Source: Cyanophora paradoxa CCMP329
Taxonomy: Eukaryota; Plantae; Glaucophyta
DNA length: 64,000 nt
Direction: 5' to 3'
NCBI GenBank assembly: GCA_004431415.1
Contig: QPMI01000191.1
Location: forward strand, 1 to 64,000
Part shown: positions 1-31,909 of the stretch, one piece after another
Layout: each line of letters starts with the position of its first letter
How positions within the stretch are numbered: the first letter of the stretch is position 1
Translations under genes and position numbers: made by a program
The notes under the pieces: model-generated
The model's input: the letters and a program-made list of their open reading frames with translations, nothing else
Databases searched by the model: none
What the model was told of the DNA's origin: nothing

Positions 1-529
1 GGCCATGTTGTCTGAGCTTAGTGTGTGCGATCAGCCTAGCGCTAGAAAATATTTAAAGGGCGCCCCACCTGACTTCAGCTGAGCGCTCGGGTGATTCAGG
101 TAAAACACGTGTTCAATTCGTCTCACTGGGGGGAAGGGCTTCGATCGCGGCTACGCGAATATTCGAGAGTCTAAATCTGGCGCTGGGCAGGCGACGGCGT
201 ACAGGGTGATCTCGTTTTGGCGGGATGAGCATGATTGCTGGAAGCAGTCGCCCTTGCGGCACTCCAGCGAGATGTGCGCAGCAGCCTGCAGTAGTTGAAG
301 CAGATCTCGCCGTTCTCGTCCAATCCTCTTCCATGCCTCGTACTCGAAGATGCCGAAGGTCAGGCAGCAGGTGAAGTATTGGGGGCGCACATTCTCTCGT
401 TGGCTTACGGTTAAGTGTGAGGAACCGAGGCCCGTGCCCCTCTTAAGGCCCCGGTCAGGTGAGCTTTCAGACGAAGTCAGAAAACACGCGTTCAATTTCA
501 GAGGGATACAGAGCATCAGATCAAAGGAA

Positions 530-960
530 ATCATCCTATCGTCAGGCTAAAGGGGTAGCCGCACTGCTGGTGCAGCTGATCGACCTTCATCTGGGGGGAG
601 CCATCTGCCTCCGCAAGACCCAGATGTTGCACTGATACCCCTCAAAGAATGTGTAGGCGAGGGAGCGGCCTGAGGAGAGATCGCGCGCAGAACAGGCCCA
701 TCGGGTACTTGAACATGCGTGCAGTTCAGGCGCCCGCGGAGAAGGTCACGATGTAGGCCGTCTGTCCGGTTTGGGTCTTGGCGCAGGAGACCAGGGTGAA
801 GGAGAAGCCATCGTCGGAGAGCTTCATGAGGAGGATCTTACCGGGCAGTCCTTGCAGTCGTCTACTTTGCCGTCCTTGAGAACTTCCACCTCGCGGTCAA
901 TGGGCTCGCCGATCACGCGCACGGTGTATTCTCGACGAAGAACTGGGCAACAAGGGCCAT
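530..960 (-). pseudogene. Frameshifted ORF, possibly with a SWIM-like Cys motif
   Basis: ATG at 960. Stitching frames gives MALVAQFFVE..YTVRVIGEPIDREVEVLKDGK..KILLMKLSDDGFSFTLVSCAKTQTGQTAYIVTFSAG..LNCT..MFKYPMGLFC, loosely like SWIM (YxV..CxC..GxxCxH). Needs several indels. Confidence 0.25.
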
Positions 961-1066
961 GTTGCTTGCTGGTTGCGTTGAGAGAGATTGAGAGTGTGAG
1001 GGGAACGCCGCGTGCCGCGTGCTTATAGAGGCCGTTCAGGTGAGGTTCAGGTGAGCGCTCACCTGA

Positions 1067-1190
1067 GGAGGGGGGGGGGAGAAGTGACGCGGACGCGAAA
1101 GATTCCGTCATGGGTTTTTCGTCATGGGCTGGAACTTGGACCTGGGACTCGGGCCCAAACTCTCCCGGTAAAAAAATAGATTCGAACTTG
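1067..1190 (+). repeat. Outer inverted repeat, left arm (pairs with 2476-2588)
   Basis: gattccgtcatgggtttttcgtcatgggctggaacttggac is, with one mismatch, the reverse complement of gtccaagttccagcccatgacggaaaacccatgacggaatc; similarity extends to the G-run/C-run ends. Confidence 0.85.
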
Positions 1191-1220
1191 GCGCCATTTT
1201 CTGATGCTAGTCTACCCACC

Positions 1221-1882
1221 ATGGAGCCGCCATCTCCCAGCTGGTCTCCCAGGGCGCCAAGCTCGACAAGGCCCTCAACATCTACCTTCAGCTGATCGAG
1301 CTGGCATGGCCCGAGCCAATGATTGCCCAGGCCTGCAAATCGCTCCACGTGGCGTTCGATGCGCCGTTCTCAGGTGACCGGATCAGATGACATCCTGGTC
1401 CAAGGAGGAGATAAAGGCAGACTTTGAGGCGCTTTTCTCATTTATGAGCAAGAAGTATGCCGAAATCGAAGCAGCCAAGGATGCCGAAGCCCAAGGCGGT
1501 GAAGATGCAGAAGCCCCAGAAGCCCCAGCCCAAGGCCCTGCCGCGACCAAGGCACCGAAGTTCAAGGCGCTGGGCCCCTGCAGAGGGCGAAGGCCAAGGC
1601 GGACCTGCGACCGCGTAGGCCCAAGGACATAGCCAAGGAGGCAAGCGGCCACAGGCCGGACTGGCCGGCGCCGGCGCCCTACGCTACCTCAAGCTGGACA
1701 AGAGCAACGATACCGGCTTCACCAGGAGGAGGTGGCCTGAGCCTCTCAGGTGGCTGGAGCCAAGGGAGATCAAGGCCGGAGGCGGTATCGAGCTAGCGCT
1801 AGCGCTGGGAGGCGGTGGTGGTGCAGACTTGGAGGAGCAGGCCTTGCTAGATACCATCAACTTGGGCAAGGTAGAGCTGTGA
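1221..1882 (+). pseudogene. Frameshifted hypothetical ORF of the element
   Basis: ATG 1221 preceded by ccattttctg. Coding-like pieces KLDKALNIYLQLIELAW, WSKEEIKADFEALFSFMSKKYAEIEAAK and DLEEQALLDTINLGKVEL* lie in different frames. Confidence 0.45.
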
Positions 1883-2382
1883 TATCTAGCTAGTGCTTGC
1901 TAGCGCTTGCTTAATTAATTAACCTGAAGTTACCTGACATTTACCTGAAAGGTTGCGGAGGTTGCGGACGCGTCACAATTCGTCATGGGTTTTCCGTCAT
2001 GGGCTGGAACTTGGACTCGGACTCGGCCGCAAAACTCGGCGTAAAAAAATACACGTGTTTTTGTCAAGTCTAACGTACCGACTCTGTACCCCTCTATTCG
2101 ACTTGAAGTAATTTCAAGTTGCTATGACATCATACTGAAGTTGCTATGACATTATCGTTATTCACAATCAATGAATACTTTAATGTAGTATAGAACGGTC
2201 ATAGGAGGGGTACGTCGTTCTTGTTCAAGTCTCGAACTTACCAGGAGAATTCCCGGCCGAGTCCCGAGTCCAAGTTCCAGCCCATGACGGAAAACCCATG
2301 ACGGAATTGTGACGCGTCCGCAACCTCCGCAACCTTTCAGGTAATTAATTAAGCAAGCGCTAGCGCTAGCTAGCTAGATATC
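1881..2382. repeat. Inner fold-back: arms 1881-2029 and 2254-2382 with an AT-rich ~220-bp loop
   Basis: gatatctagc..gcttgcttaattaatt..tacctgaaaggttgcggaggttgcggacgcgtcacaatt..cgtcatgggttttccgtcatgggctggaacttggactc versus its reverse complement at 2254-2382. Confidence 0.9.
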
Positions 2383-2475
2383 GATACCACCTACTTAGTA
2401 CTACTTAGTACTACTAGACACTAGGACACTAGACTCTGGGACACTAGGCATTTGGACATAGGGGTACCCCGCCGA

Positions 2476-2588
2476 GTTCAAGTCTCGAACTTACCAGGAG
2501 AATTCCGGCCGAGTCCGAGTCCAAGTTCCAGCCCATGACGGAAAACCCATGACGGAATCTTTTGCGTCGCGTCATTTCTCCCCCTCCT
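2476..2588 (-). repeat. Outer inverted repeat, right arm (also a direct repeat of 2224-2310)
   Basis: ttcaagtctcgaacttaccaggagaattcc..ggccgagtcc..gagtccaagttccagcccatgacggaaaacccatgacggaat occurs at both ~2224 and ~2477. Confidence 0.85.
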
Positions 2589-2640
2589 ACGTTCGCAATC
2601 TCCGGACGCCTCCCACAATTTTCCAAGGTACCCAGCAAGC

Positions 2641-2922
2641 ATGGACTTTACTGACTGCGCAGGTATCAAGCAGGAGCCTGAGGACCTTCTCACCGCCGCG
2701 CCTCGGCGCCCAAGCAGCGCCGCCCGTGGGCCCAAGTCCTCTGCTCCGAGCCCGAGATCCTGGCGGCTCCGGCGCGCGGGCCGGAGACCGTGGACCTGAC
2801 GCTGGAGGAGCCGGCGCGCGGCCCGCCGCGCCTGCTGATCCTTGCGCGGCGGCGGCCGCGCTCTACTACGCCGCCGGCGCCTGGGCCCGCAGCTCTCGGG
2901 CCTGGTCCGGAACCTTTTCTAA
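2641..2922 (+). CDS. Small hypothetical protein with C-terminal hydrophobic segment (frameshifted)
   Basis: MDFTDCAGIKQEPEDLL..ETVDLTLEEPARGPPRLLILA/AAAALYYAAGAW; upstream aattttccaag motif. Confidence 0.4.
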
Positions 2923-2932
2923 GTCTTGCCCA

Positions 2933-3273
2933 ATGGAGGCCCTGCTAGATCTCATGCCTTTGCGCTGCCCATCTTCTTCCTGGTGGGCCTCAGCCGCATG
3001 GAGCGCGAGGCGCGCCAGCCCGAGCGCGTCGAGCGCGGCCTCACCCCCGCAGAGCAGCGCAACCTCACCGAGTGGGACCTGGCGCTCATGGCCGGCCGCA
3101 TGCTCGACGGCAACCGGCTCGAGCCGGGCCACCGCCTCAAGCTAGAGGACGGCGGCACGGCCCTCTGGGACGGCGAGGCCTGGAAGCACGATTCGACGGG
3201 CGAGCCGATGAAGCTGCTCGCCTCCGGCAACAAGTACTGGCGCGGCGACTCGATGGAGTTCCGGCGCCCGTGA
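2933..3273 (+). CDS. Small hypothetical protein with N-terminal membrane anchor (one frameshift)
   Basis: MEALLDL/AFALPIFFLVGLSRMERE..KYWRGDSMEFRRP*; strongly GC3-biased codons; upstream cttttctaag. Confidence 0.55.
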
Positions 3274-3309
3274 TTGCTAGTGATTTTCTAGCCCTTCTAC
3301 TAGTAGAGA

Positions 3310-3591
3310 ATGCCCGACCCTCGCCCGACCCCGCCGCAGGTGCCGAGAGCGCGGGCAGCTCGGACGAGTACTCCGAGCTCACGGATCCCGACCCGACGAG
3401 CCGGCGACGCCTTCGCGACGGAGAACGAGCGCTCCCTCATGCGCGTCTACGAGGCGCTGCGCGAGGCGATCTACTGGGAGGATCCCCGCCTGGGAACCCT
3501 GATGAACTTTGCCAAGTTCGCCGAGTTCATGTTCGCTATGACCGTGCCCTTCACCCGAGTCGTGCTCTGGGATAGGAACAGGAACTGGTAA
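3310..3591 (+). CDS. Small helical hypothetical protein, virus-like
   Basis: Acidic N-terminal part (SSDEYSELTDPD in an alternate frame) then FATENERSLMRVYEALREAIYWEDPRLGTLMNFAKFAEFMF; upstream gattttctag. Confidence 0.55.
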   Translation: MPDPRPTPPQVPRARAARTSTPSSRIPTRRAGDAFATENERSLMRVYEALREAIYWEDPRLGTLMNFAKFAEFMFAMTVPFTRVVLWDRNRNW

Positions 3592-3618
3592 AGGCATTGA
3601 ATACAACAGTACAGAGCC

Positions 3619-3989
3619 CTACGAGCTAGAGCTGCTATCGCCCGAGTCCAGGCGCGCCTTCTTGGCCTTGGAGCGGCGGAGGCGGAGACGTACTGCAGGC
3701 GCAGGTTGCGCACTAGGAGCTCGCCGGCCGTGGTGCCGGCAGCCCGGGAACCGAGTCCGTGGGCAGCAGCTGTCCCTCGCGTATCGCCTTGTACGTCTTG
3801 CGCTTGTTGAATGCAACCTTCTCCGTATCCTCCGCGACCGGGACTTCCAGCGCCAGCGTGCGCTTGGCCTTCTTGACGGAGACTGCGTTCGCACGCTCCA
3901 GCTTCACTCCGGGCTCCAGGGGGTAGGGGCGACTGCGTTCGCCACCGGGTTCTCAGCGAAGGAAACACGGGGGAAGAGCCGCCGCGCAT
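3619..3989 (-). CDS. Small basic hypothetical protein (frameshifted)
   Basis: VKLERANAVSVKKAKRTLALEVPVAEDTEKVAFNKRKTYKAIREG..RLRLRRSKAKKARL; upstream attttctaaacgcta. Confidence 0.45.
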
Positions 3990-4005
3990 GGTTCGCTCGG
4001 TTTAC

Positions 4006-4332
4006 CTAGCGTTTAGAAAATAGCGCGCGAGCCTCGAGCACCAGGAGACCCGCCACAACCGCTGCGGCGATGACAACGGCCACCTTGAGCCAGTGCCAGA
4101 AGCGCTCGGCCCCGTCCGTCAGCGCGCGGCCCGCCTTGCCCGGTGCGGTGAGCGCGGAGCCCAGGGCGCCCGCCGCAATGTCGGCCCACGCGCCTCCGTC
4201 GCCGCGCAGGACGTTCTCTCGGTTCTTCGTCTCCACCGTGGCGCCAATCGCCGCGTTGATCTCGCCGAACTGCAGGCGCGGCTGGCCCTTGGGGCCGAAG
4301 GTCTTCGTGAGCAGCGCATCGAGCCAGCTCAT
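4006..4332 (-). CDS. 108-aa protein with C-terminal transmembrane helix
   Basis: Intact ORF MSWLDALLTKTFG..FWHWLKVAVVIAAAVVAGLLVLEARALFSKR; upstream gtttttcgaa. Confidence 0.65.
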   Translation of the reverse strand: MSWLDALLTKTFGPKGQPRLQFGEINAAIGATVETKNRENVLRGDGGAWADIAAGALGSALTAPGKAGRALTDGAERFWHWLKVAVVIAAAVVAGLLVLEARALFSKR

Positions 4333-4369
4333 CCTTGGCTAGCTTCCAACCGGGGTTTCGAAAAACTAT

Positions 4370-4846
4370 CTAAATGACCAGGCCGCGCAGGTACCAGACC
4401 ATCAGGAGCGAGCCGCCCAGCGCCACCAGCAGCGGCAGGTGCCCGTCCACGGCGCGCCGCATGCGGTTGTCGCACAGCTCCTGGCAGCTCAGCCGGTTGG
4501 CCTCGTCGAAGTAGGCGCTCACGGCGTAGGGGCGGCCGGCCGGCGGTGCAGCCCCCGGCCCAGGCACGGGTAGGCCTCCGCCTGGCGCCGCGCGGCCAGC
4601 GCCGCCGTCGCCGCGTGCGCCGCCTCCCTCTGCCCCGGCGCGATCGCCACGAGGGGCAGCGCCCCCACGCTCCTGCCCTTGCCCGCCCCTTGATCGTTTT
4701 CAGCGACGGCGGCGCGGGATCCGCCGCCCTCACCCTGGGCCCTCCGCCGCCGCCCCACCCTTAGCCCTCGCCGCCTCGCCGATCTTGCTGCATCGCGAAT
4801 CCGATTTGAACACGGTGCACAGCAGCTTCTCTACCGCGCTCGACAT
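4370..4846 (-). CDS. Hypothetical Cys-containing protein with C-terminal TM helix (frameshifted)
   Basis: MSSAVEKLLCTVFKSDSRCSKIG..YFDEANRLSCQELCDNRMRRAVDGHLPLLVALGGSLLMVWYLRGLVI*; upstream aattttcttc. Confidence 0.5.
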
Positions 4847-4940
4847 CTTCGAACGTGTAACGAGAATGAAGAAAATTTAAAAGGGAACGCCAACGGACTC
4901 GGAACTCGGAAAAGGGGGAGGGAGAATGAACTTTGAAAAG

Positions 4941-5126
4941 TTAGCGCCCGCGGGCGCATGCCGGCCGCCGCCTGCGAGGCGCAGCCGGGGGCGTAGAGGC
5001 TCTTGGCGGCGTAGCCAAAGCCCACGCCGATGACCGCCGAGGCCGTGGGGTGCCGCCGAGGAGCCAGGTGAGGGTCGCGGCGAGGGCTCCTAGCGAGTAG
5101 TGGGCAGGATAAGCTTCGAAGGCCAT
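4941..5126 (-). CDS. Tiny two-TM hypothetical protein (frameshifted; 3' end approximate)
   Basis: MAFEAYPAHYSLGALAATLTWLLGG/HPTASAVIGVGFGYAAKSLY; upstream tatttttctc. Confidence 0.45.
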   Translation of the reverse strand: MAFEAYPAHYSLGALAATLTWLLGGTPRPRRSSAWALATPPRASTPPAAPRRRRPACARGR

Positions 5127-5172
5127 CGCGGGACCGAATTGAGGGAGGGTTGAGAAAAATACCGCCTCGGCC

Positions 5173-6500
5173 TCAGTGGTGCAGGTGCCGGAAGCGCGCG
5201 TTGTCCTCGGCCTCCTCGCGCGCCGCCTGCTCCTCCGCCGCGTCGATCTTTGCCCGCGAGGCCTCGCGCGCCGCCCGCCTTGCGTACGAGGTGGGCACCG
5301 GCGCCCGCCGGTAGCTGTAGCCGAGGCCCTTCGCCAGCTCCACGGTCCCGTCCTCGAACGCCCGCCAGCTCTCCACGGCCTCCGCCGCGCTCATCCGCTC
5401 CGCGCGGAAGCCCGCCTCCAGCTCGGCGCGGAAGGCGGTGGCCTCCTGCAGGCGCTGGCCCAGAGGGCCTGGCGCCGCTCCTCCGCCTCGCGCGCCTGGC
5501 GCGCCGCCAGCGCCCGCCGCTCGGCCTCCTGCTGGGCCCCGAAGCCCTGGATCGCGGTGAGGACGGCGCCGGGGCCGGGGAGGGGCTGGGGCCGTCGGCG
5601 CTCGCGGAGGAGGCCGAGCTCCCGTAGCCGCTCGGGCCCGCGCCGCCGTTCGTCGGGGTACCCTGCCCTTGGATCAGGAGGGGGCGGGGGAGGGGGGTAC
5701 GGGAGGGAAGGCGGGGGGTACGCGGGCCGGACCTGGCGCGGCAGCATCTCGTCGATGCGCTGCTGGCCGGGGCGCTGCTGGGGGCCGTGGCGGGGGGCTG
5801 GGGCGGGAGGAAGGCCGGCGCCGAGTTGCGGGTGCGCTTGCCCTTGCCCTTGGTGTGGGGCTGGACGAGGAAGGGCCCGACGTCGGGCGCCGGGTCCTTG
5901 AACTGGGCGACGGGGATCGCGATCGCCTCCAGCGCCGGCTGGCTCTCGCCGAGGGAGAGCGGGCCTTGGGGACGATGCCGCGGATGTAGGTCTGCCAGAC
6001 GCCGCCGAGCTTGTAGGAGTAGGGGCGGCACCAGGAGCCGAAGCCGGCGAGGGTCTCGTCCAGCCGGCCGTTCTCGATGTCGGCGCCGACGGCGGCGGAG
6101 GTGTCCGGGCCCTCCGTGCGCGCGATGTACTCGACGATGCCCGCGACGCTCGTCATCCAGCCCTCCGTCTCCGAGCCGACGAGGAAGGTGGTGGGGTCGA
6201 CGACGCAGTGGGTGATGATGAAGCGGGTGAGGGGACAGGAGGCCGTCTCCTGCCAGAAGCCGAGGCGCTTCTCCCGCAGCCACACCGGCTCGAAGGCCTG
6301 GATGCAGGAGGCCTGGCGGCCACCTGCGGCGCGGGCGACGTTAGCGCGTACGACGTCGGGACGGGCGGGAAGGTGCGCGGCTTCGAATCCAGCGGCTCCC
6401 CGCGAAGCTGCCTGCGGCCCAGTGAGCGTGCTGCGAGCGGGAGGTGGGAGGGATTGGGCGGGCGGGCCTGCGTCCAGCGCTGAAACGTAGCTCCACTGAT
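5173..6500 (-). CDS. Larger hypothetical protein: globular N-domain, Pro-rich linker, coiled-coil C-terminus (multiple frameshifts; start uncertain)
   Basis: QAFEPVWLREKRLGFWQETASCPLTRFIITHCVVDP..YSYKLGGVWQTYIRGIVPK; PPPSLPYPPPPPPP; AVESWRAFEDGTVELAKGLGYSY..ARFRHLHH*. Confidence 0.5.
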
Positions 6501-7161
6501 GCTATCCGCGATGCGCGTAGCCCGCGACTGGCTGCGGACAAGGGAGGGCTTAGCTAGGACAAGAACGGGTGTGGGGCGCGGGGCTGGAGGCGCGGGGAGG
6601 CGAGCCGGAGCCGCCGAATCGATGCGCGGGCTTGAGAACGAGATCTAGAAGCGTGCGCAAGTCGCCGCGAACGTCGGCTCGAGTTGCGGAAGGCGCGGCG
6701 GCCAATCTCGGCACCTGCTCAGAGACCAAATGTCAGCGGACGCGGCGAATCGAGCGCGAGGTTGCGGGACATGTTCTAGGTGCTAAATGCAAGGGATAGA
6801 GCGGCAAGAGAGCGAGCTGGCACCTGCGGGATGCGGCGGAGTGCTCCGGCTCGGGCGCCATCGAGCTTTCGAAGGTCCGCGGCCGGCGCGAGCGACCCTG
6901 CGCGTGGCGGCGTGAGTGCGGCGTCGAGAGAGCTTTCCAGCGCCCAAAATCTGAGGTCCGGAGCTAGCCGTGGTGCGGAGAAAGAGGTTGCGAAGTGAGG
7001 CGCACCTCCGAATCGAAAGGAGCGAGGCGGCGGCTCTCCGGGCTGAGCGGAATGCAAGCTAGTGCCTCTGGCAAGTGCTGCAAGGAGCGCTGGCCCGGGC
7101 GCTGCGAGATGCGCTGCCCGGGCGCTTTTTTTCGGGTTGGGGTACTGTGTTTTGAGTCGAA

Positions 7162-7307
7162 ACACGTGGAGCAACCGCGTGAGCCCAAAACTTTCTGAGC
7201 TTAGGAGCAAAGGCGGTCGAGCGCTCGGCCGCGCAAGCTAGCTCCGGCGCGCTCTGCCTTCTCTCTACACGTGTCGCATTCGCGTGCGCTCAAAACTTTC
7301 TAAGCTT
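7162..7307 (+). repeat. Diverged ~41-bp direct repeat (7162-7202, 7267-7307) in the divergent intergenic region
   Basis: acacgtg..cgcgtg..caaaactttctgagctt versus acacgtg..cgcgtg..caaaactttctaagctt. Confidence 0.6.
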
Positions 7308-7464
7308 CGGTCAAGCAAGGGCTAGCGCTTCCGAAGTTCTACGCGCGCGCCTCCCCGTCCGCCGGGCCGACGGTCTGCGCGTCACATCGTCCGCTGCGCC
7401 AAGAAGGAGAGATCAAGACGGTGTCAACCGGGTCTAGTTGAGCGCTTAAGGTCGGACCAAAGCC

Positions 7465-7514
7465 TGTCCCGACCCTCCCAGATCTTTAAATTAATATCTC
7501 AGAAGGTCGAGACA
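7465..7514 (+). repeat. AT-centred palindromic element, copy upstream of the helicase
   Basis: tgtcccgaccctcccagat-ctttaaattaat-atctcagaaggtcgagaca. Confidence 0.9.
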
Positions 7515-7604
7515 GCAGTCCAGACGTCGACTATAGCTAGCCAACAGACGTCGACTAGCCTAGTAGATCTAGAATTTTCCAAGCCTAGCTATAGAGAGAC
7601 GACC

Positions 7605-10600
7605 ATGGCAACCGGACGCGTGTCTCTCGACGTCGACGCCTTCCTGGCCCGTATGCCCGGGCCCGGGGTACAGCAGATAGATCTGAGCGAGCAGGAGTGC
7701 AGCTTTTTCGTTCGATTCCCTCTCGTCGAAGTCCAGAAGGCCTGCAGCCCGACCCTGGGGACGGCTTTCTGCGTCTTCCACCCGCCCTGCATCACCCCCA
7801 GCCACTTCTCGGGTGCCGAGGATGAGACGAGCACCGCGGCAGCCTGCGCCTTTGCAACCAAGTTCGGAGGCTTCACTTTCTCTCGCCCCTTGGATAATGG
7901 ATTCAAGGCTGCCTACGTCCTACAGAGCCCGGAGGCTTGCGATCTCATGGCATGGTTCTTTGGGAGCTCGAGCGGCCTGGAGCTCGGTGTGGATGGCACG
8001 GGGGGCTACGTTCTGCGGGGGCCGGCGCCCGGGCCGCGAGCGGAGCTCCTCCCCACTCCATCCAGAAGCTCGGCGCCCCGCGCTAAGCCCATCCCGGAGC
8101 CGGGCGCTCTCCTGGATTCGAGCCCAAGCCTGCCGGCCTTGGAGCGGCTCCTGGACCGCCTGCGCAAGAACAAGGCGGTGAGGGACGAGATCTGGAAGGC
8201 GGGGGCAGAGCTGCGCGCGGACCTTGGCCTGCACGACGCCCGCCGCGTTCAGCACCTTGGAGTCGAGCCCGACGGGTCCATCACCCTCGTCCTGGGCGGG
8301 AGTCAGCCGGGGGCGCCGGCGGCTCGAATCTCCATCCAGGCGCACGGTATTGAAGTCGAGCTCGAGGGGAGGGGACCGGAGGGGAGTCGGGCAGCGTGGC
8401 ACAGACCCGCTATGTGACCGATCCCTCGCAGCCTGTCGCCTTCGACATTGCCCTCCCTCCCTCCTGATCGCGCTCGAGTCGACGGGCCTGGAGGCTTGCG
8501 TCAATGCAGTGGATGAACGCCACCTCTCGTGCAAGATCCTTACCTCCGCATTCGGGGCGCTGGAGCAGAACCCGAGATCCGCTCAGCCGCAGGTCGACGT
8601 CATCTGCTCGGGACTCAACACGGGGAAGACGCAGGCGCTGATCGATGCGTACCTGGACCCGGCCCTCGCAGGCGGCTGGCGAGTGATCCTCGTGACTTGC
8701 CGCCGGGCCTTCTCCCGCGACCTCAAGCGTCGCATTGATGCTGCGGAGTTGTCAAAGGACGCCGTGCTTTACATGGACATCAAGAAGCCACCGGAGAGCT
8801 CAAAGGGATCGCATGGCAAGTGGGGCTTCCGCCATGAGGAGTGCAGGTGCGTCGTCATCACATGGGACTCGCTGCACAAGGTGCTCGAGGACTGGGAGGG
8901 CTGGTCGACGGCGCCGCTACTGGTCGTGCTGGACGAGCTCTCCTCCCTCACGAAGCACCTCACCTCGAGCGGCACCCTCGAGCCCACCGGCCTGCACCTA
9001 GGTATGCGGTCAGTGCCTCGAAACGCGCGCTGCGTGGGCCTATGGCGCGGCGTGATGAAGGCATCGCGCATCGTGGCGATGGACGGCTTCGTTCGGTCGG
9101 TCGATCTCGCGTACCTGGCAGAGTCGGCGCAGGAGGTCGGGGCGCGCCTGGGGCTCCTGTACAACTCGCATCGCACCTGCGACTGGAAGATGCGCGTGTC
9201 AGACAGCCCGGCGCACGTCGAGGCGGACATCATGGTGCAGTGCCGACCTGGGCGCTCGCGGGCCATGATCATCGCGGAGACGCCGGCCAAGGCGATCGAG
9301 CTGCAGGAGAAGATTGCGAAGCAGGCGCTGGAGCAGCTCAGCCTGGGCGGCGCTCAGTACGTGACTCAGCTCGAGGCAGGGCCCGAGGACGGCAGCGGCG
9401 CACCGTTCACGATCGGGCTCATCGTTGGGCAGGCCAAGGAGAAGAGCGTGCGCTTCACGAACGACGGCCCAGTGCGCATCGTGTCGATCGATGTGTCTGA
9501 GGAGGGCGCGTACAAGGCCTGCGACGTGCTCATCGCAACTTCCGCGCTCGGGGCAGGCGTGGACTTTTCGGACGCGCACTTTGACAAGGTCTACGGCGTG
9601 TTCCAGGCGGAGCCCGCGCAGCTGGAGGCGGACGACATCGTGCAGCTGCTGTTTCGAGTCAGAAGGCTGCGCAAACGCAGCACGCCCGACGGGGAGCACC
9701 TGCTCGTCGCCGTGCGCAAGAACCGGACGCCCTCGGTTGCGGTCGGCGCGGCGGCTGCGCACTGGCGTGAGAGCGACGACGACGAGAGCTCGGACGACAT
9801 GCAGCGCTACCTGGACCTGAAGGCTAGCCACCGCGGGAGCCGCCGCGCCGGCATGCCCACTCGGCGCCTCGCAGTGGCAGCGCGCCTGCGGCTGATGTCG
9901 ACCTGCGCGCTGATGAACGTGCAAGTCACGGAGGATCAAAACCCGAGCGGACCGAAGCAGGAGAAGGAGCAGCGGCTGCGCGAGATCAGGAGCGTGCTGG
10001 AGGCGGGCGCGCTGGAGCCCGTCGATCTGTGGAGCACGGTGCTGGCCTGGAGGCAGTCCCGCGAGTCTCTCGCTAAGCTGGACATCGAGAAGGTTGCTTC
10101 GCTTGCTCGCACGTCGATCGCCGCGTTCCTGGCCAAGGATCCGAGCGAGCTGACCGAAGGAGACGTCGCCTGGATGTGGGATTCGTTCTACTCCATCCCG
10201 CTCACTGCCGTGGTCACGCTGGTGCTGAAGCATGGCGCGGACGTTGCCGAGATCGTGCCTACTGCTGAGCGCCTCAAGGTATCGAAGGTCGTCGCGCTGT
10301 TCAAGAAACTCTTCGGCTGGCGGGGTATGGAAAGCTCGCGGGGCGTGCTCTGTGGTCGGACGAAGCCTACGCGGCCCTGGCGTCGCCGGAGGGTCGGGAG
10401 GCGTACGCGGCTCTGCAGAGTCTGGACGAGCGCGCGCCCCGCTTCGATGCAGCGGACGGTGAGAAGAAGCGGCTCTCGCAGCAGTCTTGGCAAGTCATCA
10501 AGTACCTGCTGGAGAAGTACCTCGGAGTGAGACGCGCTTTCTCCGACGCGGACGGAGGGCAAATGGGCAGCCGAAAGCGACGCTACATCACGTGGGAGGA

Positions 10601-10724
10601 AGACATGCTCGACGACGCAGTAGAGCGCCAGGCTAAGCAGGCAAGGGCAGGCATGGCGCCAAGCTTCCCAGAGGTTTACAACGTTTTCTCCGACTGCTAT
10701 GCTCTCATTCACAGGCGCGTGTGA
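7605..10724 (+). CDS. Replication origin-binding protein (UL9-like SF2 helicase) with N-terminal degenerate Prim-Pol-like domain; frameshifts near 8400-8460 and 10350
   Basis: Walker A SGLNTGKT, motif Ia VILVTCRRAF, ITWDSLHKV, Walker B VVLDELSS, IVAMDG, motif V LIATSALGAGVDF, motif VI QLLFRVR; C-terminal QVIKYLLEKYLGV..RKRRY. The N-terminal ORF has LGVDGTGGYVLRGP. Confidence 0.85.
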
Positions 10725-10825
10725 TTGTCGGATGTCACAGTGTGGACTTCGCGAACGGGATGCGCGTGCCAGTGTGTAAATACGAACGTGCGAATTCAAG
10801 TGACGTCATGCATATGATCAATGAA

Positions 10826-10875
10826 TGTCTCGACTTTTTGAGATATTAATTTAAAGATCTGGGAGGGTCGGGACA
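10826..10875 (-). repeat. AT-centred palindromic element, inverted copy downstream of the helicase
   Basis: Reverse complement tgtcccgaccctcccagatctttaaattaatatctcaaaaagtcgagaca, near-identical to 7465-7514; a half-site gtgtcccgacc lies at ~10914. Confidence 0.9.
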
Positions 10876-11153
10876 TTGCGAGGCGGACGAGAGTGAGGGC
10901 ATGCACTCTCTATGTGTCCCGACCTTTTCTGAACAACTCATGATTGCCGTATCATCGATCTGCATTTACTCACTTCGTTCTCTGTCGCTTGCACATGCGC
11001 GGTGTGGGATTACTAATTAGATCTAGTCTCCCTAGCCCTCTGCGGCCGCCTTCCTGCCCCCCTGCAAAGAGCAGCTCAACCAAATCCTGTGGGGTCTGAT
11101 TCATTGCAGACTCGCCTTCCCCGCCTGGGCCTGAGCTACACCAAGCTACGGTG

Positions 11154-11507
11154 AGTCCGACCAAGAGACGTGTCCGGACCCTCCCTACTTTCTTTATAGA
11201 TTATTGGAAAGGTCCGGACACTAGAGGAGGGAGGGCGTACATAAGTAGTCTGACCAAGAGACGTGTCCCGACCCTCCCAGATCTTTAAATTAATATCTGA
11301 GAGGGTCCGGACACTAGAGGAGGGCGTACATAAGTAGTCTGACCAAGAGACGTGTCCCGACCCTCCCAGATCTTTAAATTAATATCTGAGAGGGTCGAGA
11401 CACTAGAGGAGGGCGTACATAAGTAGTCTGACCAAGAGACGTGTCCCGACCCTCCCAGATCTTTAAATTAATATCTGAGAGGGTCGGGACACTAGAGGAG
11501 GGCGTAC
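11154..11507 (+). repeat. Tandem array of four ~89-bp units, each containing a 52-bp palindrome with an AT-rich centre
   Basis: Units start at 11154, 11247, 11336 and 11425. Arms gtgtcccgaccctcccagat / atctgagagggtcgggacac (19/20 complementary in unit 4) flank ctttaaattaat. Confidence 0.95.
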
Positions 11508-12156
11508 GACTTAAACTCGCGCAGCGCCGCCTGCTCCTCGCTGAGGTTCTCTGACTTCATTCGATCGCTGTAGGGCTCGGGCGGCGTACCCTCCTTGACG
11601 TGCATCCAAAACAGCTGTAAGCACCTCCTCATGAGCTTGATGTACCTCTCGTCCCGTCTGACGTACCACGTCTCAGAGTCTGCACGCGCAGAGGCGTGAA
11701 ACAGAAAAGTTCGGCCCAGTCGCGGCCCGTTATGTCCAACAGGCCCTGAAGTTGTGGCATGTAATAGGTAGGAACGCTATCGTAAAGTTCGCCCTTGTAA
11801 GGGCATTTCACCTCTAAAATCCTATCATTTCCTATCAGTCCGTCGGGGCTCCCGGCGAGGAACGGCATTTCTTTGTGTTCGTGCAGTCCAGTGTGTTGAA
11901 TGTCCACGTTATCGTTCAGTGCCTTGTAGATAGAGACCGCGAGGGGCTCGTAGTCGTGCCCGTAGGTTAGGGCAGGGTTGTCAAAGTTGTTTTCCTCCGC
12001 TATCCCGCTTAGCTCCGCCCACAGGCGGGCCCTGGATTTCCAGGGGTTTATGCCGCACGCAGCCGCAAAATTAGATGCAGTTAGTTTTTCACGGCGCGCC
12101 GCGTGCCACGCTGCGCTCCCCTGTTGCAAAGTCTCGCAATTTGTATCGGTATGCAT
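11492..12156 (-). CDS. YqaJ-like viral recombinase / lambda-exonuclease family nuclease (frameshift near 11680)
   Basis: QGSAAWHAARREKLTAS, YGHDYE, FLAGSPDGL, ILEVKCP, YYMPQLQGLL. The tail WYVRRDERYIKLMRRCLQLFW..EFKSYALL* continues in another frame. Confidence 0.9.
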
Positions 12157-12206
12157 AGCGTAGCCTCGCAGTAGCGTTTAGAATTTCTTGATGTGTGCAA
12201 TTGCAA

Positions 12207-12902
12207 ATGTCGGATGCAGAGGAAGCGCCCAGGGACGTGATCGCACAGTTCATAGATCAGGTCAAGGACCTTAGACGCTGGGTGGTAGAGCAGGCCTCGC
12301 GACCGAATCGACAGCGCCAACCCTGGCCGGTGCTAGAGCTGGCCCGGGCAGGGTGGCTAGACACGCATTACAACTCTGGCGGGGCCCTTTACGTTCGGAG
12401 CCACGACGAGGGCAGGATTATCGACGAGTTCAAGCGCATCTGGTTCGCCCTGGGCTCCAAGCTCAGCATACTCTCGACCCTCCCGGACCACATTCGCATG
12501 CAAATCCTCGAGTGGTACGCGAAGGCAAGGGACTCGCAATGGGACGACGTAAATTTGCGCGACCTCTCGCGCTTGCGCTCGGCTGTGACGGCGTATGTCA
12601 CAAACTATGATTATCACGTCAAAAAGCCCCAATTCGAAGTTGAGCCAATTCCGATGAATCTGGTACCCCTGGGATGGGAAGAGTACCCGAGTACTCGTGG
12701 AACAGGGGCCTCAACCCCCCGCGCCAGGCCCTGCCAGCCCGCCCGCCCACCGATAAACGCCCCCGCCCCGCGTGACGTCAGACGGGACATACGCGAATGG
12801 GAGGAGTGGAGCAACGACCCGAAGAACTGGCTACCCGGGGAGGCGGAGATGCGGAAGCGCGCGAGGCTGATGCCCGGCGACAGGTACCCCGACCGCGAGT
12901 AG
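12207..12902 (+). CDS. Hypothetical protein, paralogue A
   Basis: Open 231-aa frame from ATG 12207; aligns by eye with the next gene. Confidence 0.7.
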   Translation: MSDAEEAPRDVIAQFIDQVKDLRRWVVEQASRPNRQRQPWPVLELARAGWLDTHYNSGGALYVRSHDEGRIIDEFKRIWFALGSKLSILSTLPDHIRMQILEWYAKARDSQWDDVNLRDLSRLRSAVTAYVTNYDYHVKKPQFEVEPIPMNLVPLGWEEYPSTRGTGASTPRARPCQPARPPINAPAPRDVRRDIREWEEWSNDPKNWLPGEAEMRKRARLMPGDRYPDRE

Positions 12903-12936
12903 GGGTACAGGTATAAATTCTCACCGAGCCGCGAGC

Positions 12937-13674
12937 ATGGCGCGAACACGCGAGTCCGACGTGCTGTACAACAACGGCGACCTGGACGGGGAGATTCGAC
13001 AGCGGAACGTGGACTTGGAGGATGCGAACGCAGTGCTGGAGGGGAGGCGCACGTCCTCAGGGGCGGCTCGCCGGCGGAGAACTTCATGGAGCGCGTGCTC
13101 TACCTTGTGCGCTGGATTAGAGACGAATTCCACGACGAGCGAGAGCTCCCGGACAGGGAGATGATCAGGGCCGCGGGCTTGATGGGTATGACAGAGAACC
13201 CGAGATCGTACCTGAGGCGCGAACGCAGGGATCTGAACGGCGATTGGGCCGACCTGCAAGCGCTGTGGACGGCCTTTGCGAACCGCAAGAGCCAGATCCT
13301 TGCCCTGCCCGCGCAGGTACAGCAGCGTATCATTGATTTCGTAGCCCCCTGGCGCGACGAGTCCCTCCAGCAGCCATTCATGCAACCACGCTTCCTCTCC
13401 GGGCTCAGGAGCGCGTTCTTCCACTTGGCCGTGAGCAGCGACCGGTATTTCACACCGCAGAGGATCGTTCACGGCGAATTCGGCATACCCCCGAGTGGCT
13501 GAATTTTGCCACCGTACCCCTTCCCCACCCCGCCTCGAAGGCCCCCCCTCCCCTACCCCCGAGCAGCGTGAGTCACTCAAGCGTCAGAGGGAGGTACGCG
13601 AATGGATGGACGACACCAGCCACTGGGTACAGGGCGAGGCCGAATTACGCAAGTTCGGAAGGTTCGGGCAGTAA
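12937..13674 (+). CDS. Hypothetical protein, paralogue B (frameshifts near 13045 and 13490-13560)
   Basis: MARTRESDVLYNNG..ENFMERVLYLVRW..LSGLRSAF..REVREWMDDTSHWVQGEAELRKFGRFGQ*. Confidence 0.65.
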
Positions 13675-14332
13675 CAGCGGGGGGTACAGCATTCAGTTAG
13701 AGCCTGAGCATCGTTAGAGGCCGGGAGGCCCCCCGAGGGGTACACCGGCTGTTACTCCCCGCGTCGGTTAGTGCTAGCCCCCCTGTTAGTGCAGCGTGTA
13801 CCTGATCGCAATATAACACCCAAACCTCCGCGACGCGTGACTCATGCAACCTCCGAGGGTTAACAATGCATTGACAGCGAAGGGGCAAGCTCGAGAGCTC
13901 AACGCTTCACAAAGGCCCACTTATATAGTGAGTATTATCCGACGATCGACAATATTAATTGACGAATAGGCTCTGATCATGATAAGAGTGTCCCAAGTTA
14001 CCAAGTAGCTGCCTAAAAGTTTGAACTAAAGTCTCTGACAGCTGCGGCACTAGGCTGCTTACATCCTCCTGCACTGCGCATGATGCATACGTCCAAATTG
14101 CCTTGCTACTAGCGGCTAAGCGTGAAAATCCCCCGGGGCCCATTTAAAGTACAGATCATTAGTGCCGCTCTGAGAGCTCTGACTTTTGAAACACTGCGGT
14201 GAGCAAATATCAACGAAAGGCCAGAAAAAAGACCCGTCTGCCAGAAAGGAGGCCTACGGGGCGCGGGCTGCTTCAAAAAAGAAGAGGAGGGAGGAAGAGG
14301 ATGAGGGAGGGGCGCAGGTGGGCGCGGGGCGC

Positions 14333-17300
14333 TCAGACGTCCACGCGGTCGAGGCTGCTGGGGGCCATCGACTCGGGGCGCCGCGCGGGGACGTAGACAC
14401 CCTCCTGGGAGCGGCGGGCGGGGATGTACCCCTCCTGGGAGCGGCGCGAGGGGGCGGGGTCGCGGTCGGGGATCGAGTCGAACTCGACGGCCGCGCCGAC
14501 GGCGACGGAGCGCTGGTGCACGTGGGCGCCCCCGTGCCCCGAGCCCGACGGCGGGCTCGCCGGCGGGATCGCCTGCGCCGGCCCCGCGGTGAGCCCGGGG
14601 CAGGCAGGAGGGGCCGGGGCGGGGCGGGGCGCGGGGGCCCCACCTGGGCGACGAGCTCGCGCATGTTGCGGATGCTGTCGCCGGCGAGGGGCGTGCCGTC
14701 GACGAAGGGCGTGCCCCGCAGCTTGCTGATCGACCCGTCCGGGTCCCGCACCGACCAGTCCTCCTCCGGCCGCGCGTGCTCTGCCGCCCCCGCCCGAGCC
14801 TCGCAAGGGGCGCCCGCGAGGGAGGGTTCGCGCGGGGCGGGAGGGGGCACCGTGGCCGGCGACGGCCGTCGGCAGCGCGTTGACGTGCTGCGCCCGCACC
14901 GACCACTGCGCCCCAGGCGGCAGCGTCGGAGGCGAGGGGGGTTAGGGCGGGCGCGGGAGGCGAGCGCCCGGCGCGCACGTCATCCAGCTCTGCGCGCGGC
15001 GACGCGTGAGTCGAGGGCGCGGGGCCCGGCGGGGCGGGGCGGGGCGGGGCGGGCGCGCCGGTCTTCTTCTCGTGGTGCCCGTAGTACCCCCGCGTGCCGA
15101 AGTAGATGATGGTGACCTGGGGGCGGGGGTTGGGAGGGGGCAGGGGGGGGCAGCGGGGGGGGCGGGGCGGGGCGGGGGCACGTAGGCGGCGAGCCAGCCG
15201 AGGACGATGGCGAGGGCGGCGAAGGCGGCGATGGCCGACGCGTTCAGCGGCGCCGGCAGCGAGTAGTTCATGATCGCCACCTGCCGCCCCCGCCCCCGTC
15301 GCCCCGAGCTCCTCCCAGGGGCGGGGCGCGGCGCGGGGGCTCCGAGGGGGCGGGGGCGGACGATGTAGATGACGAAGATCTCGAGGAGGTTGAGGAGCAT
15401 GCCGACGCCGGGGACGACGCCGTGGCGCCACCAGTTGAAGTGCGGCTTCCCCGCGAAGTTCACCTGCCCGCCCCCCGTGAGGCCCGCCCCGCCGCGCCCC
15501 GCCCCCGGCCCGCCGCGGGCACCATGCAGGTGAAGCAGATGCCGGCGTAGAGGAGGAACCTGCCGCCCCGCCCCGGCCCCTCGGCCCCGCCCCGCACCGC
15601 CCCGCGGGGCCCCGCGAGCGCTGCAACGCACGTCCCCACGTTGGAGGCCATCGTCACCGCCGTGATCGCGATCGTGTTGTTGTACGCGTCCTGCTCCCCG
15701 GCACCGTCGGCGGGGGCCCGAGGCGGGGCCGGCGCGGGGAGGGGCAGCGCACCTTGTTCGCCACGCACGCGATCCCGAGCACGCAGTTGATGACTGAGGC
15801 GCCGGCGTCAGGGGCCGGGCGGGGGGAGGCCGGGGGAGGCCGGGGGCGGGGCGGGGGGGCGCACAGAAGGAGAAGAGGAGGCCGACCCAGGGGGTGCGCC
15901 ACGTGGGGTGCAGGCGGCACATGAAGGACGGGAACTGCCGCTCCGTCGCCTGCAAGCGGGCGCCGCGCACGCCCGGGTCGGACCCGGCATGGCAGGGCGG
16001 GGGTGGAAGGGGCGGGGGGCGGGCAGGGGCGGGCCATGAAGAGGGAGACGCGGACGGCGGCGTTGGAGGCGGCGAGGGTGGTGCCGAAGATGGAGAGGAG
16101 GACGGTGACGGCCTGGATGCACATCAGCGCGTACCCGTTCAGCCCGAAGTAGTTCCCCGCCACGATCGTCAGGTCCTGCCACCGCCCCGGCCCGAGGCTC
16201 AGCGCCGGGGCGGGTCGGGTGGGGCGGGCGGGCGGGGCGGGGGAACGGGGGCGGGGCACCCCGATGGGGGCCATGGAGCCGGCGGAGCGGAAGGAGGCCG
16301 GCATCGCCGCCGAGGCCGAGACGTACTCGAAGGGGTACGAGAGCAGCGCCTGCAGCGCGAGCGAGAGCACGCAGCCGACCGCCACGTTGCGCTCCGGCTT
16401 CTTCGTCTCGCCGCCTGGTGCCCCGGTGAGCGGGGGGCGGGGAGCGGGGCCTCGGGGGGCGGGCGCGCCGAGCTGCGTGGAGGAGTCGAAGCCGACGAGG
16501 ATGAGGATGGCGATGGAGGACTGGTAGACCATCCCCAGCCCGCTGTTCACCTGCCGGCCAACCTCGAACCCCGGAGCGAGCCGGGCGGGCGCTCGGGGCG
16601 CCGGCTCTGCGCGGGCACCTTGAAGATGTCCGAGGTCTTCTCGAAGAGCCAGGTGTCGCCGGCGGGGATGAGCGCCGTCGCCACCGTCGTCGGGTTCGCC
16701 GCCACCTCGGGCGGCCCCGCCGCGTTCCGGTCCCGGAAGGCCGCCCAGAGCACCCCGTACCTGCCCCAGCCGAGGCCGCCTCGGCTGCGGTCCCGAGGCG
16801 GGGCGGGGCGGGGCGGGGGGGCGGACAGGAAGATGGCGGCCGACTGCATGATGACCACGCAGATGTTGAAGTTCGTCCTGCGCCGCCCGGCGGCCCCGGC
16901 CCGAGTGAGCGGGGCGCCGGCGGGGCGGCGCGGGGGGAGGCGCGCACGAGAAGTTTATGCCCTTCATCGCGATGCCGGCCACGATGGCGGCGCACATGAT
17001 GGCGATCCCCGCCGCCGCGCCCGGCGAGAGCGGGTTCGTCGGGTCCCGCCCCGGCGACGTGTTGATCTGCGCCCCCGGTTCGAGTCGGTTCAGGTTGCGC
17101 TACTGTCGGTCAGTTGGGACGGGGTCTGCCGCGCACGAGGTAGACGATGACCTGCAGCGGGGAACGGCGGCCGGGTGAGCGGGGCCGGCGGGTGTGGCGG
17201 GGCGGAGGGCGGCGGCCGCTCACTTGGCTCATGAGGGCAGTTGTGACGCCTGCGGGCGAGGGGCGTGAGCGGGCGGCGGGGCGCAGCGCCGGCGCGAGCC

Positions 17301-27458: not shown

Positions 27459-27812
27459 CACTTTGCGAGGGCTCGGAGTACCGGGAGCCTCTCAGTCGGG
27501 TATGGACTTCGTCTACGAGCGATCTAATCAAGGAACGCGCTGCTCTACCAGAGTCGGCGGAACGCGCCGATAGCCGAAAGCCGAGAAAACGGAACCTGGA
27601 TGACGGAAATTCGCGTACCCGGGTGACAGGTGATCTGGTGCAGCGCGCGAATGCAGCGGCAGCTTGGCGCGTACGTGGTTCCGAGTGCATCATCTGGGAC
27701 AAGTCCCGAGAGCTACCGCGTCGCCGTCAGCCCCGCCTTGGTCTGCAGCTTCGATCCGGCGCGGGGGCTCCGCGGCGATTGCGCCGACTGCAGGAGGCCA
27801 GCTGAGGGCACG

Positions 27813-30800: not shown

Positions 30801-31644
30801 AGCGTGCCCCGCGGCATGTCCGTCGAGGCCGTCGACCTCCCCACCGCCCTCCGCCTCCTCTCCCTGCCCCGCTCCCTCGGGGCGCACCCGGGGACGGGCA
30901 AGGAGGTCGTCGCCAACACGGGGCCCTTCGGGCCGTACCTCTCGCACGACGGCCTCTCGTGCCCGCTCCCCGCGGGGGACTCGCCGTACGAGGTGGGCAT
31001 GGAGCGCGCCCTGGAGCTCCTCGCCGCCCTCCAGAAGCGCATCGCCCTCGAGTTCCCCCACCCCGACGACGCCGCCCCCGTCCGCGTCATGACCTCCCGG
31101 CCCGCCCCCGCCCCCGCCCCGCCCCTGCGCTCCCTCTCGCTGACGGCGCGCAGGCTCGGGGTGACGCTGCGGCACAACAAGACGGTGGTGAAGCTGCCGC
31201 GGGGCACCGACGTGGCGTCCATCGGGCGCGAGGAGGCCCTCGCCGCCATCGCCCAGGCCGAGGGCGCCAAGCCGTGCGCCCCCTCGCCCCCGCCCCCAGC
31301 TCTGAAGGCGTCCCCTCACGGCGCTCCGCAGAAGCGGCTCGCGCAGGGGCAAGGCCGCGCAGGCCGCACCGGAGGCGGCGACAGCCACCCCTGCAGCGCG
31401 CGGCCGCACGAAAGCTGCGGGGTCGGCTGCAGCCGCCCCGAGAAAGGCCCGCTCGACGACCACCCGCAAGGCCGCCGCCGCCGCGGGGGACGGCGAGGCG
31501 GCACCCAAGGCGCCCAGGGCAGCCAGGAGCGCATCGGAGCCGGCTGCGGCTGCAGGGGCGCGGCGGCGGCGCAGCACCACTGCAGCGGATGCGGAGCCCA
31601 CCCGGGAACTGCCGCCCTCCCCCGCCCGCGGCCGCTTCCTGTAG
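27813..31644 (+). CDS. topA: Bacterial-type DNA topoisomerase I (type IA), organelle-targeted
   Basis: [46 protein letters not shown], catalytic [31 protein letters not shown]; C-terminal GxYGPY repeats; N-terminal transit-like extension. Confidence 0.95.
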
Positions 31645-31909
31645 CCGCCAGCTGTGAATTCGAATAACTCCACATCTGATGATCGGGCAGAATTGCGGAA
31701 TTTGATCGCCGAGTCGGTCTCTCCGCTGCTAACCACAGCTGCAGCTTGCGTAGCGCTGCGCATGCAGATCTAGACTTGATCATGAAAGGAAATTGAACTT
31801 GATCATCAAATGCGCAAGGCTCCAAGGCCCCCGTTCGAATCCTCTCGCGGTCTCTTTCAGGCCGCGCCTTCCGGGCGGAAGCTGCGCGTGCGGGAGCATC
31901 GAAGCAGCC

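Follow-up and report, generated by a model that had tools for sequence, protein, structure and literature searches.

What is a helicase gene of the herpesvirus origin-binding type doing in the genome of an alga, and are the palindromes around it its origins? We addressed this question in a 64,000-nt stretch of Cyanophora paradoxa CCMP329 (contig QPMI01000191.1, positions 1 to 64,000, forward strand; hereafter, the window). A first-pass annotation, made from the letters alone, had described positions 7465-12156 as a single module, with a UL9-type SF2 helicase gene bracketed by two oppositely oriented palindromes, four further palindromes and a convergent gene of the lambda-exonuclease family, and had assigned it to an unclassified virus, plasmid-like element or transposon. 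Each of these parts is present: the helicase matches Pfam Herpes_ori_bp (PF02399; E 6.7e-9), the palindromes lie where they were placed, and the exonuclease belongs to the YqaJ family (coordinates are given in Table 1). What the annotation overlooked is that the UL9-type gene takes the place of a different helicase gene. The locus is probably an endogenous Polinton-like virus in which a UL9 cassette overwrote the gene for an SF3 helicase, providing a substitute initiator with predicted palindromic origins. Within this overall reading, the swap appears well supported, the viral class likely and the pairing of initiator and origins plausible.

The helicase lies within a multicopy element

Contig depth over the helicase gene was 20-71 times that of the flanking host single-copy contigs in four DNA runs, a rough ratio in which summed contig depth does not equal true copy number. 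In all four runs, depth was high from position 1 and reached host level between the bins 13,341-14,007 and 14,008-14,674; contigs of host depth begin at 13,891-13,898, and one run has a different flank after 13,928. Because depth is high from the first position and falls near 13,900-13,930, the window opens inside a multicopy element and contains its right end (the only end seen, at ~13,920-13,927, followed by differing flanks). The bounds of the first-pass module were too narrow: at least 13.9 kb of the element lie in the window, and it continues past the left edge. Tens of near-identical copies with this sharp common end are spread across many contigs. The genes of the element are compact and show no host-type intron signatures, and to its right follow host genes with short GC-rich introns. 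Depth, copies and right end together identify the stretch as a multicopy mobile element, in line with the virus, plasmid-like element or transposon that the annotation had proposed, and place the helicase outside the set of host genes. The shared right end (13900-13960) reads CCCACTTATATA in two different flanks, so that the TA-rich hexamer is either a component of the end or a preferred target. Across positions 1-14000 the assembly has many single-base gaps relative to short-read contigs, and annotated gene models at element loci are consequently broken or chimeric.

Two replicase genes alternate in one slot

The minus-strand frame 5902-6351 matched 44 C. paradoxa gene models. Sixteen of these contain a Walker A motif, most of them in proteins of 1,000-1,765 aa, followed by an apparent Walker B at +43, motif C at +89 and an arginine finger at +106, a spacing that we take to be that of D5. 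This stretch aligned to nearly the whole of the Pfam profiles DUF5906 (E 0.0099) and RNA_helicase (E 0.014). Five further models retain SF3 sequence upstream of the joint, which brings the SF3-type models to 21 of the 44; the remaining 23 are stumps that comprise only the last ~355-400 residues, as in the window. A UL9 gene was listed nearby (within 1-5 gene numbers) for none of the 21 SF3-type models vs. 17 of the 23 stumps (Fisher p 1.6e-7, the copies not being independent, with up to four accessions shown per sequence and P0095 classed by hand).

The same flanking genes surround both types, namely YqaJ, the open reading frame at 12207 (ORF 12207) and a train of small genes. Among 14 YqaJ records, nine lie beside UL9, two near an SF3-type gene and three are unplaced; ORF 12207 occurs within 1-3 genes of both SF3-type and UL9-type genes in other copies, and the order of the small genes is unchanged in a copy of SF3 type (chimeric model P0106). 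At the left joint, a short-read loose end at 6314 continues, by eye, into the SF3 gene; on the right, different sequence is attached before 11,047 and 11,109, with a second family from ~11,090. A single slot, with the same genes on either side, holds one or the other of the two genes, and the division into stump and SF3-type models, the joints and the common flanks indicate that the cassette sits where SF3-type copies have the 5' ~1,160 codons of that gene. The first-pass grouping of helicase, palindromes and YqaJ into one module does not hold, as YqaJ belongs to the backbone and is also found beside SF3, and the palindrome array lies outside the cassette.

Since UL9 copies still carry the stump, SF3 is very probably the older state and the direction of change SF3 to UL9. 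Three UL9 variants with a stump model, 44-73% identical to one another, have three joints (that of the window, one ~70 codons downstream and one ~11 codons upstream), which makes more than one replacement, or a later shifting of the joint, likely. Several facts, however, weigh against this account of the swap. The Pfam matches of the SF3 stretch fall below the curated cut-offs, and searches of NCBIfam, PHROGs and PDB returned nothing significant for it; 6 of the 23 stumps have no listed UL9 neighbour, and the stump P0095 keeps 11 more SF3 codons; co-location was read from the gene numbers of error-rich models, not from DNA; and the joints of variants B and C come from gene models only, where they may be splice sites. 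Relatives of the SF3 family were absent from the viral contig collection, and those of P0094 from phage records. The stump had also been considered as a packaging ATPase, on a weak VirD4-like signal in an Atlas search (0.90), an idea that was given up when the stump turned out to form the end of the SF3 protein.

The helicase of the cassette is UL9-like

Compared with the assembly, all four runs carry one extra base at each of 8365, 8454 and 10321; with N placed at these three sites, the frame 7605-10724 is open for 1,040 codons, as the frame-corrected protein of the first-pass annotation implied. The three breaks are assembly errors, and the reading of the gene as a pseudogene was rejected on the sequence of these runs. 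The protein has a UL9-type SF2 core with intact helicase motifs. A profile of the family, which took in one homologue from outside C. paradoxa, had as its best PDB matches only herpes origin-binding proteins, over both RecA domains (E ~3e-14). The top structural match in VIA was the origin-binding protein (OBP) of herpes simplex virus 1 (HSV-1), with Z 15.2 vs. 13.2 for the next (root-mean-square deviation 8.9, 301 residues aligned); the alignment runs from model residues 97-797 to OBP chain residues 41-747, past the helicase core, in a model whose confidence score (pLDDT) is only 43. The best viral matches in Foldseek were UL9-type proteins of giant viruses and herpesviruses. The poor fold model, together with the rank of the HSV-1 OBP structure 9hgj in the Foldseek search (only 49th in PDB), counts against the herpes-type assignment.

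The N-terminal region of ~270 aa, which is 34-37% identical in the most distant variant, was modelled at pLDDT 48 with a best Z of 5.4 and no clear fold match, and an Atlas search found no match for it. The sole homologue from outside the alga, P0032, is a 1,091-aa primase-UL9 fusion of giant-virus type (E 8e-4); it has both AEP motifs, hhDhD and SxH, which are not conserved across the algal variants, and profile comparison aligns the helicase part only. The protein is UL9-like at best: it does not belong to the herpes family, and it is not an intact primase-UL9 fusion either. Four UL9 variants exist, with pairwise identities of 43-73%. All 12 helicase clusters found consist of EukProt models from C. 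paradoxa (49-100% identity, many contigs), as are five of the six matches among 1.84 billion representatives, the sixth being P0032; the viral contig collection held no relatives.

Palindromes as candidate origins

In the six palindromes, 9-13 of the 13 positions of the outer arms are paired and the centre is 83-92% AT, with folding z-scores from -2.4 to -7.6. The copy at 11171 has diverged (64% identical to palindrome 1). In part of the element copies palindrome 1 is a tandem pair (joint 7516 to 7453, separated by 22 letters, in all four DNA runs), and three runs contain a 50-bp palindrome variant in which about six pairs differ, both sides being altered (judged by eye from two loose ends). 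All six copies present in the 64-kb window fall within 7.4-11.5 kb, inside the high-depth element and near the helicase, which is not the distribution of a dispersed host miniature inverted-repeat element or satellite, the alternative that the annotation had named. Relatives of the palindrome were absent from the viral contig and genome contig collections searched. A role as hairpin terminators is disfavoured, since one copy is found 5' of the gene and conservation extends beyond the shape to the sequence.

We tentatively regard the palindromes as origins that would be read by the UL9-like protein. The cassette likely overwrote the SF3 gene and likely took over as initiator; the helicase would bind the inverted 13-bp arms and melt the AT-rich centre, as UL9 does at oriS; polymerase and primase would be supplied by the host or a helper virus, a reliance suggested by the lack of intact primase motifs in the helicase; and YqaJ may resect ends for recombination-dependent copying. 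That the helicase opens the palindromes and then depends on a polymerase and primase from elsewhere is a possibility that we put somewhat short of probable. The likeness to HSV-1 UL9 and oriS drawn by the first-pass annotation stands as regards helicase motifs, best structural match and the anatomy of inverted arms around an AT-rich spacer beside the start codon (PMC12543377). It fails as regards RVKNL, described in part of the same source as the motif of the UL9 C-terminal domain that reads oriS, which is absent from the three pieces of the protein in the window and from the four variant proteins. In addition, the algal helicase has the extra N-terminal region, the 13-bp arms are unrelated in sequence to those of oriS and occur in tandem arrays, and no ICP8, polymerase or primase partner was seen with the element.

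The same absence of RVKNL, together with the position of the sites, tells against the pairing of helicase and palindromes and gives some room to a reading, on the whole rather unlikely, in which the swap is real, the palindromes are promoters or enhancers of the backbone or origins of SF3, and the UL9-like protein acts as a replicative helicase without sequence specificity. The array of four copies is not part of the cassette and is apparently common to copies with other left-hand sequence, and the cassette joints lie ~1,150 bp and ~170 bp beyond the two bracketing palindromes. The palindromes are therefore not end markers of the cassette and may be backbone sites, although as a general account of them we consider this somewhat unlikely. 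One palindrome stands just 5' of the replicase slot in both arrangements, and inverted repeats around AT-rich DNA at 1881-2382 form a second origin candidate. The hr regions of baculoviruses consist of tandem ~70-90-bp units at several places, each with an imperfect palindrome, and serve as origins and enhancers; the 89-bp unit with its imperfect palindrome resembles such hr enhancers, whereas the palindrome here is longer, has a non-palindromic AT centre and is clustered at one gene. The SF2 and SF3 helicases of mriyaviruses are described as functionally equivalent, with no origin binding known from the portion of the source available (PMC11253617). Against a passive role of the palindromes stand the close bracketing of the UL9 gene by two of them within the cassette, the match of the arm-AT-arm layout to oriS (PMC12543377) and the occurrence of a compensated palindrome variant alongside diverged helicase variants, and we retain the initiator-origin pairing as the preferred reading.

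The bracketing pair could also be a recombination switch that flips the helicase between an OFF (antisense) state and an ON state under a backbone promoter. The two 50-bp copies are 96% complementary, the RNA seen over the gene is antisense, and the second repeat family of the element contains another inverted-repeat pair with an opposite-strand joint (1891/2355, in all four DNA runs). However, at least seven annotated copies have the orientation of the window and no clean flip was found, contigs breaking at palindromes and so hiding flips. A spacer of 24 bp is, moreover, long for a tyrosine-recombinase site, and we consider such a switch very improbable.

Some copies of the element also have a 3.4-kb unit holding palindromes joined head-to-tail (joint 12740 to 9372). 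An RNA-type run shows this joint, a DNA run has a loose end that fits it, and the chimeric gene model P0022 contains it as well; several contigs carry two consecutive helicase or YqaJ models. Together with the changing number of palindromes and the altered variant, such a joint speaks for an origin role.

Spliced antisense RNA over the helicase gene

The 11 splice joints of the antisense RNA occurred only in two RNA-type runs, which come from two studies, 7 of the 11 in both, and in neither of two DNA runs; the RNA nature of the former is guessed, and their contigs are unstranded and drop rare forms, which further weakens the case. All 11 introns are GT-AG on the minus strand with host-like signals, and 9 of them also appear in annotated gene models. 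Over the introns checked no unspliced sense contig appeared, which does not indicate silence. An antisense protein-coding gene was rejected, as the longest ATG frame in the spliced RNA has 119 aa. The host has 9.2 short introns per gene (PMC6704402), and the simplest reading is that the backbone of the element is transcribed through an inverted cassette in an intron-rich host. Such a minus-strand transcript may arise by read-through from YqaJ or from the old SF3 promoter, would be spliced by the host and probably rejoined to downstream genes, and may keep the helicase low in a latent state. The spliced RNA also accounts for the chimeric gene models at element loci in the C. paradoxa genome.

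Next to the left joint of the cassette, the predicted intron 6324..7145, seen in gene models only, is used by five annotated models to splice onto the stump; the element has 0.36 motifs like its branch point and acceptor per kb and strand. On the plus strand, the intron 11151..11573 takes out the whole palindrome array, and the RNA continues antisense to YqaJ. The sense strand of the helicase gene is poor in host-like donors (13 vs. 20.7 +/- 3.0; 3 of 1,000 synonymous shuffles were as low), as expected of an unspliced gene expressed in the nucleus. In the antisense direction we counted 16 GTNCGC donors (vs. 8.0) and 16 SYGCAG acceptors (vs. 7.6), numbers reached in 0 of 1,000 synonymous shuffles each, with motifs that were picked after the introns had been seen; the host-derived donor set was not enriched antisense (28 vs. 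24.7; 205 of 1,000 shuffles). Selection on antisense splice sites is possible.

This excess would fit a cassette that is a selfish sub-element homing into the replicase slot, where it destroys SF3 and is hidden by splicing out of the backbone transcript. One slot with three variants and three joints, splice signals (branch point and acceptor) that lie 10 nt from the joint and serve five gene models, and the proposal that repeat-flanked mobile helicases drive turnover (PMC11296320, as far as the available part of it goes) point the same way. On the other hand, the motifs were chosen post hoc, the host-derived donors show no enrichment, splicing is unable to restore an SF3 gene that has lost its 5' part, and the cassette was seen only in this slot, no search for copies elsewhere having been made; we hold this reading to be quite unlikely. 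Of about the same low standing is a broader version, in which selfish primase-less UL9-like cassettes with co-evolving palindromic origins repeatedly seized the SF3 slot of the virus and evolved antisense splice signals for silencing during latency. If true, it would represent a herpes-style pair of initiator and origin outside herpesviruses, and a replicon hijack caught at several stages in one culturable genome. On the favoured explanation of a single-slot replicase swap, the spliced antisense RNA suggests a way to keep a latent element quiet.

Over the C-terminal part of the gene (10342-10809), contig depth in one RNA-type run was 33,641 and 13,372 vs. ~120-440 across the remaining helicase, which is either a short abundant RNA or an artefact.

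Probable affinity to Polinton-like viruses

Size, copy number, compact genes and a D5-like replicase favour a Polinton-like virus, to which we consider the element likely to belong. A predicted D5-like SF3 replicase, typical of these viruses, is present in sister copies, on weak matches at E ~0.01, below the cut-offs, and with motifs in order. The host assembly has 366 hits to Polinton-like capsid genes (PMC10120064, Table S1), in view of which a Polinton-like virus, with its capsid genes to the left of the window, is more likely than the 'unclassified' element of the first-pass annotation; its statement that no capsid or integrase is recognisable was correct. Adintovirus-like contigs have been noted in C. 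paradoxa (PMC8502044).

Within positions 1-13,927, with the left part of the element outside the window, no capsid, penton, packaging (A32-like) ATPase or integrase was recognised, which speaks against the viral assignment, and the window has no recognisable HUH endonuclease, VLTF2/3 or Mriya48. Were the element a helicase-driven transposon devoid of a capsid, or part of a giant endogenous virus, this would account for 13.9 kb in which no virion gene was recognised, for an outside homologue of giant-virus type and for the giant-virus insertions that have been reported in C. paradoxa together with repeat methylation (PMC12344493). Such an origin is unlikely given the tens of near-identical copies, which are spread over many contigs and all stop sharply at the same end, the compact genes without host-type intron signatures, the D5-like replicase and the 366 small-virus capsid genes in the genome (PMC10120064).

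In Polinton-like viruses, switches among pPolB, SF1 and SF3 replicases are common (10.64898/2026.06.19.733378), a primase-SF2 (ResIII) type exists in cryptophyte elements (PMC12220804), and repeat-flanked mobile helicases have been proposed as drivers of replicon turnover (PMC11296320). The element shares with them, in the portions of these papers at hand, the multicopy integration in a protist, a predicted D5-like SF3 replicase, a repeat-flanked helicase and the exchange of the replicase between copies of one backbone. It differs in that the incoming gene is a UL9-like SF2 helicase (theirs being pPolB, SF1, SF3 and one primase-SF2), that the swap is sub-genic and leaves a stump with both states in one genome, and that no capsid genes were seen in the window. 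In mriyaviruses, UL9-like helicases with an intact primase alternate with SF3 (PMC11253617), and Ariadnaviruses hold primase-UL9 fusions (10.64898/2026.08.29.747986). As described in parts of these sources, the SF2_hel of Mriyaviricetes, mimivirus R8, pF1055L of African swine fever virus and the Ariadnavirus fusions resemble the algal protein in having a UL9-related SF2 core with an N-terminal extension, in excluding SF3 and in the presence of a PD-(D/E)xK or YqaJ nuclease in the genome; their AEP primase domain is intact, in contrast to the helicase of the element, where its motifs are not conserved. Mriyaviruses, by the same accounts, have an HUH nuclease and no integration genes, and no HUH was seen in the window.

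Distinctive of the element are the primase-less UL9-like gene, the sub-genic swap and the presence of both states and several joints in one genome, as well as the bracketing palindromes and the spliced antisense RNA. We found no description of the element in the literature, although the supplements of 10.64898/2026.06.19.733378, which were outside the search, may list such elements. Turnover of replication modules in Polinton-like viruses has so far been inferred mostly from comparison of distant genomes. Here, a single culturable alga holds both replicase states side by side in tens of copies. The joint is mapped to about one codon, the old gene has left its stump in place and four variants of the helicase exist, so that the mechanism of turnover becomes directly testable. 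If the helicase binds the palindromes, origin recognition of the UL9 type would occur outside herpesviruses and without RVKNL, which bears on the origin of UL9.

Other features of the element and its surroundings

Table 1. Features of the element within the window (nt positions of the window)
Feature	Position	Strand	Remarks
Multicopy element, right-hand part	1..13927	.	Depth drop and flank change; left end outside the window
Second repeat family, four ~90-bp copies	1089..2587	.	Two copies form inverted arms 1881-2029 / 2254-2382
Small-gene train	3620..5125	-	Downstream of the SF3 stump; several genes with hydrophobic stretches (by eye)
3' stump of SF3 gene	5173..6315	-	~355-400 codons of a ~1,500-aa protein; 77-94% identity to C-terminal part of P0085/P0091/P0097
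UL9-like cassette	6315..11040	.	~4.7 kb; replaces 5' ~1,160 codons of SF3 gene; right joint approximate
Predicted 822-nt intron	6324..7145	-	CTAAC branch point; acceptor 10 nt from left joint of cassette
Palindrome 1, 50 bp	7465..7514	+	90 bp upstream of helicase ATG
Spliced antisense RNA over helicase gene	7472..10868	-	11 GT-AG introns of 49-117 nt; no long frame
UL9-like SF2 helicase, 1,040 aa	7605..10724	+	~270-aa N-terminal region, helicase core, helical C-terminal region
Palindrome 2, 50 bp	10826..10875	-	Inverted relative to palindrome 1 and 96% complementary to it
Additional (seventh) half-site	10915-10930
GT-AG intron	11151..11573	+	One RNA-type run has the joint; the other has a loose end that fits
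Tandem array, 3.9 x 89-bp units	11154..11507	+	Outside the cassette
Palindromes 3-6, 50 bp each	11171-11220, 11264-11313, 11353-11402, 11442-11491		Inside the tandem array
YqaJ / lambda-exonuclease-family gene	11492..12156	-	Shared backbone; Pfam E 9.7e-29
Two probably paralogous genes, unknown family	12207-12902 and ~12938-13502	+	Backbone

The YqaJ gene is frameshifted near 11,680 in this copy but not in others. Scans with it returned 160 loci at 26-42% identity, none of which had a relative of the 12 element pieces or of the helicase profile. YqaJ proteins that are more than 90% alike accompany helicases with a likeness of only ~65%, as well as the SF3 type. Two environmental YqaJ relatives (67% and 53%) have the same C-terminal tail, a hint of related elements in other hosts. 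The two genes to the right of YqaJ are 25% identical over 67 aa (E 1e-4).

The inverted arms of the second repeat family surround 224 bp of 38% GC. Its copies carry two direct CCCATGACG boxes, and two of them, which stand ~50-130 bp before gene starts, are likely promoters.

In the small-gene train, the genes scanned had no Pfam family. The 108-aa gene at 4006-4332, with an N-terminus that looks amphipathic and a hydrophobic C-terminus (by eye), may encode a virion membrane protein; a paralogue of 46% identity is fused to a helicase model on another contig.

Rfam and ARAGORN searches gave no match. Host genes in the window include a bacterial-type topoisomerase IA and a replication protein A subunit (27630-31667 and 34635-35678), as well as a probable amino-acid permease at ~14.3-17 kb (by eye).

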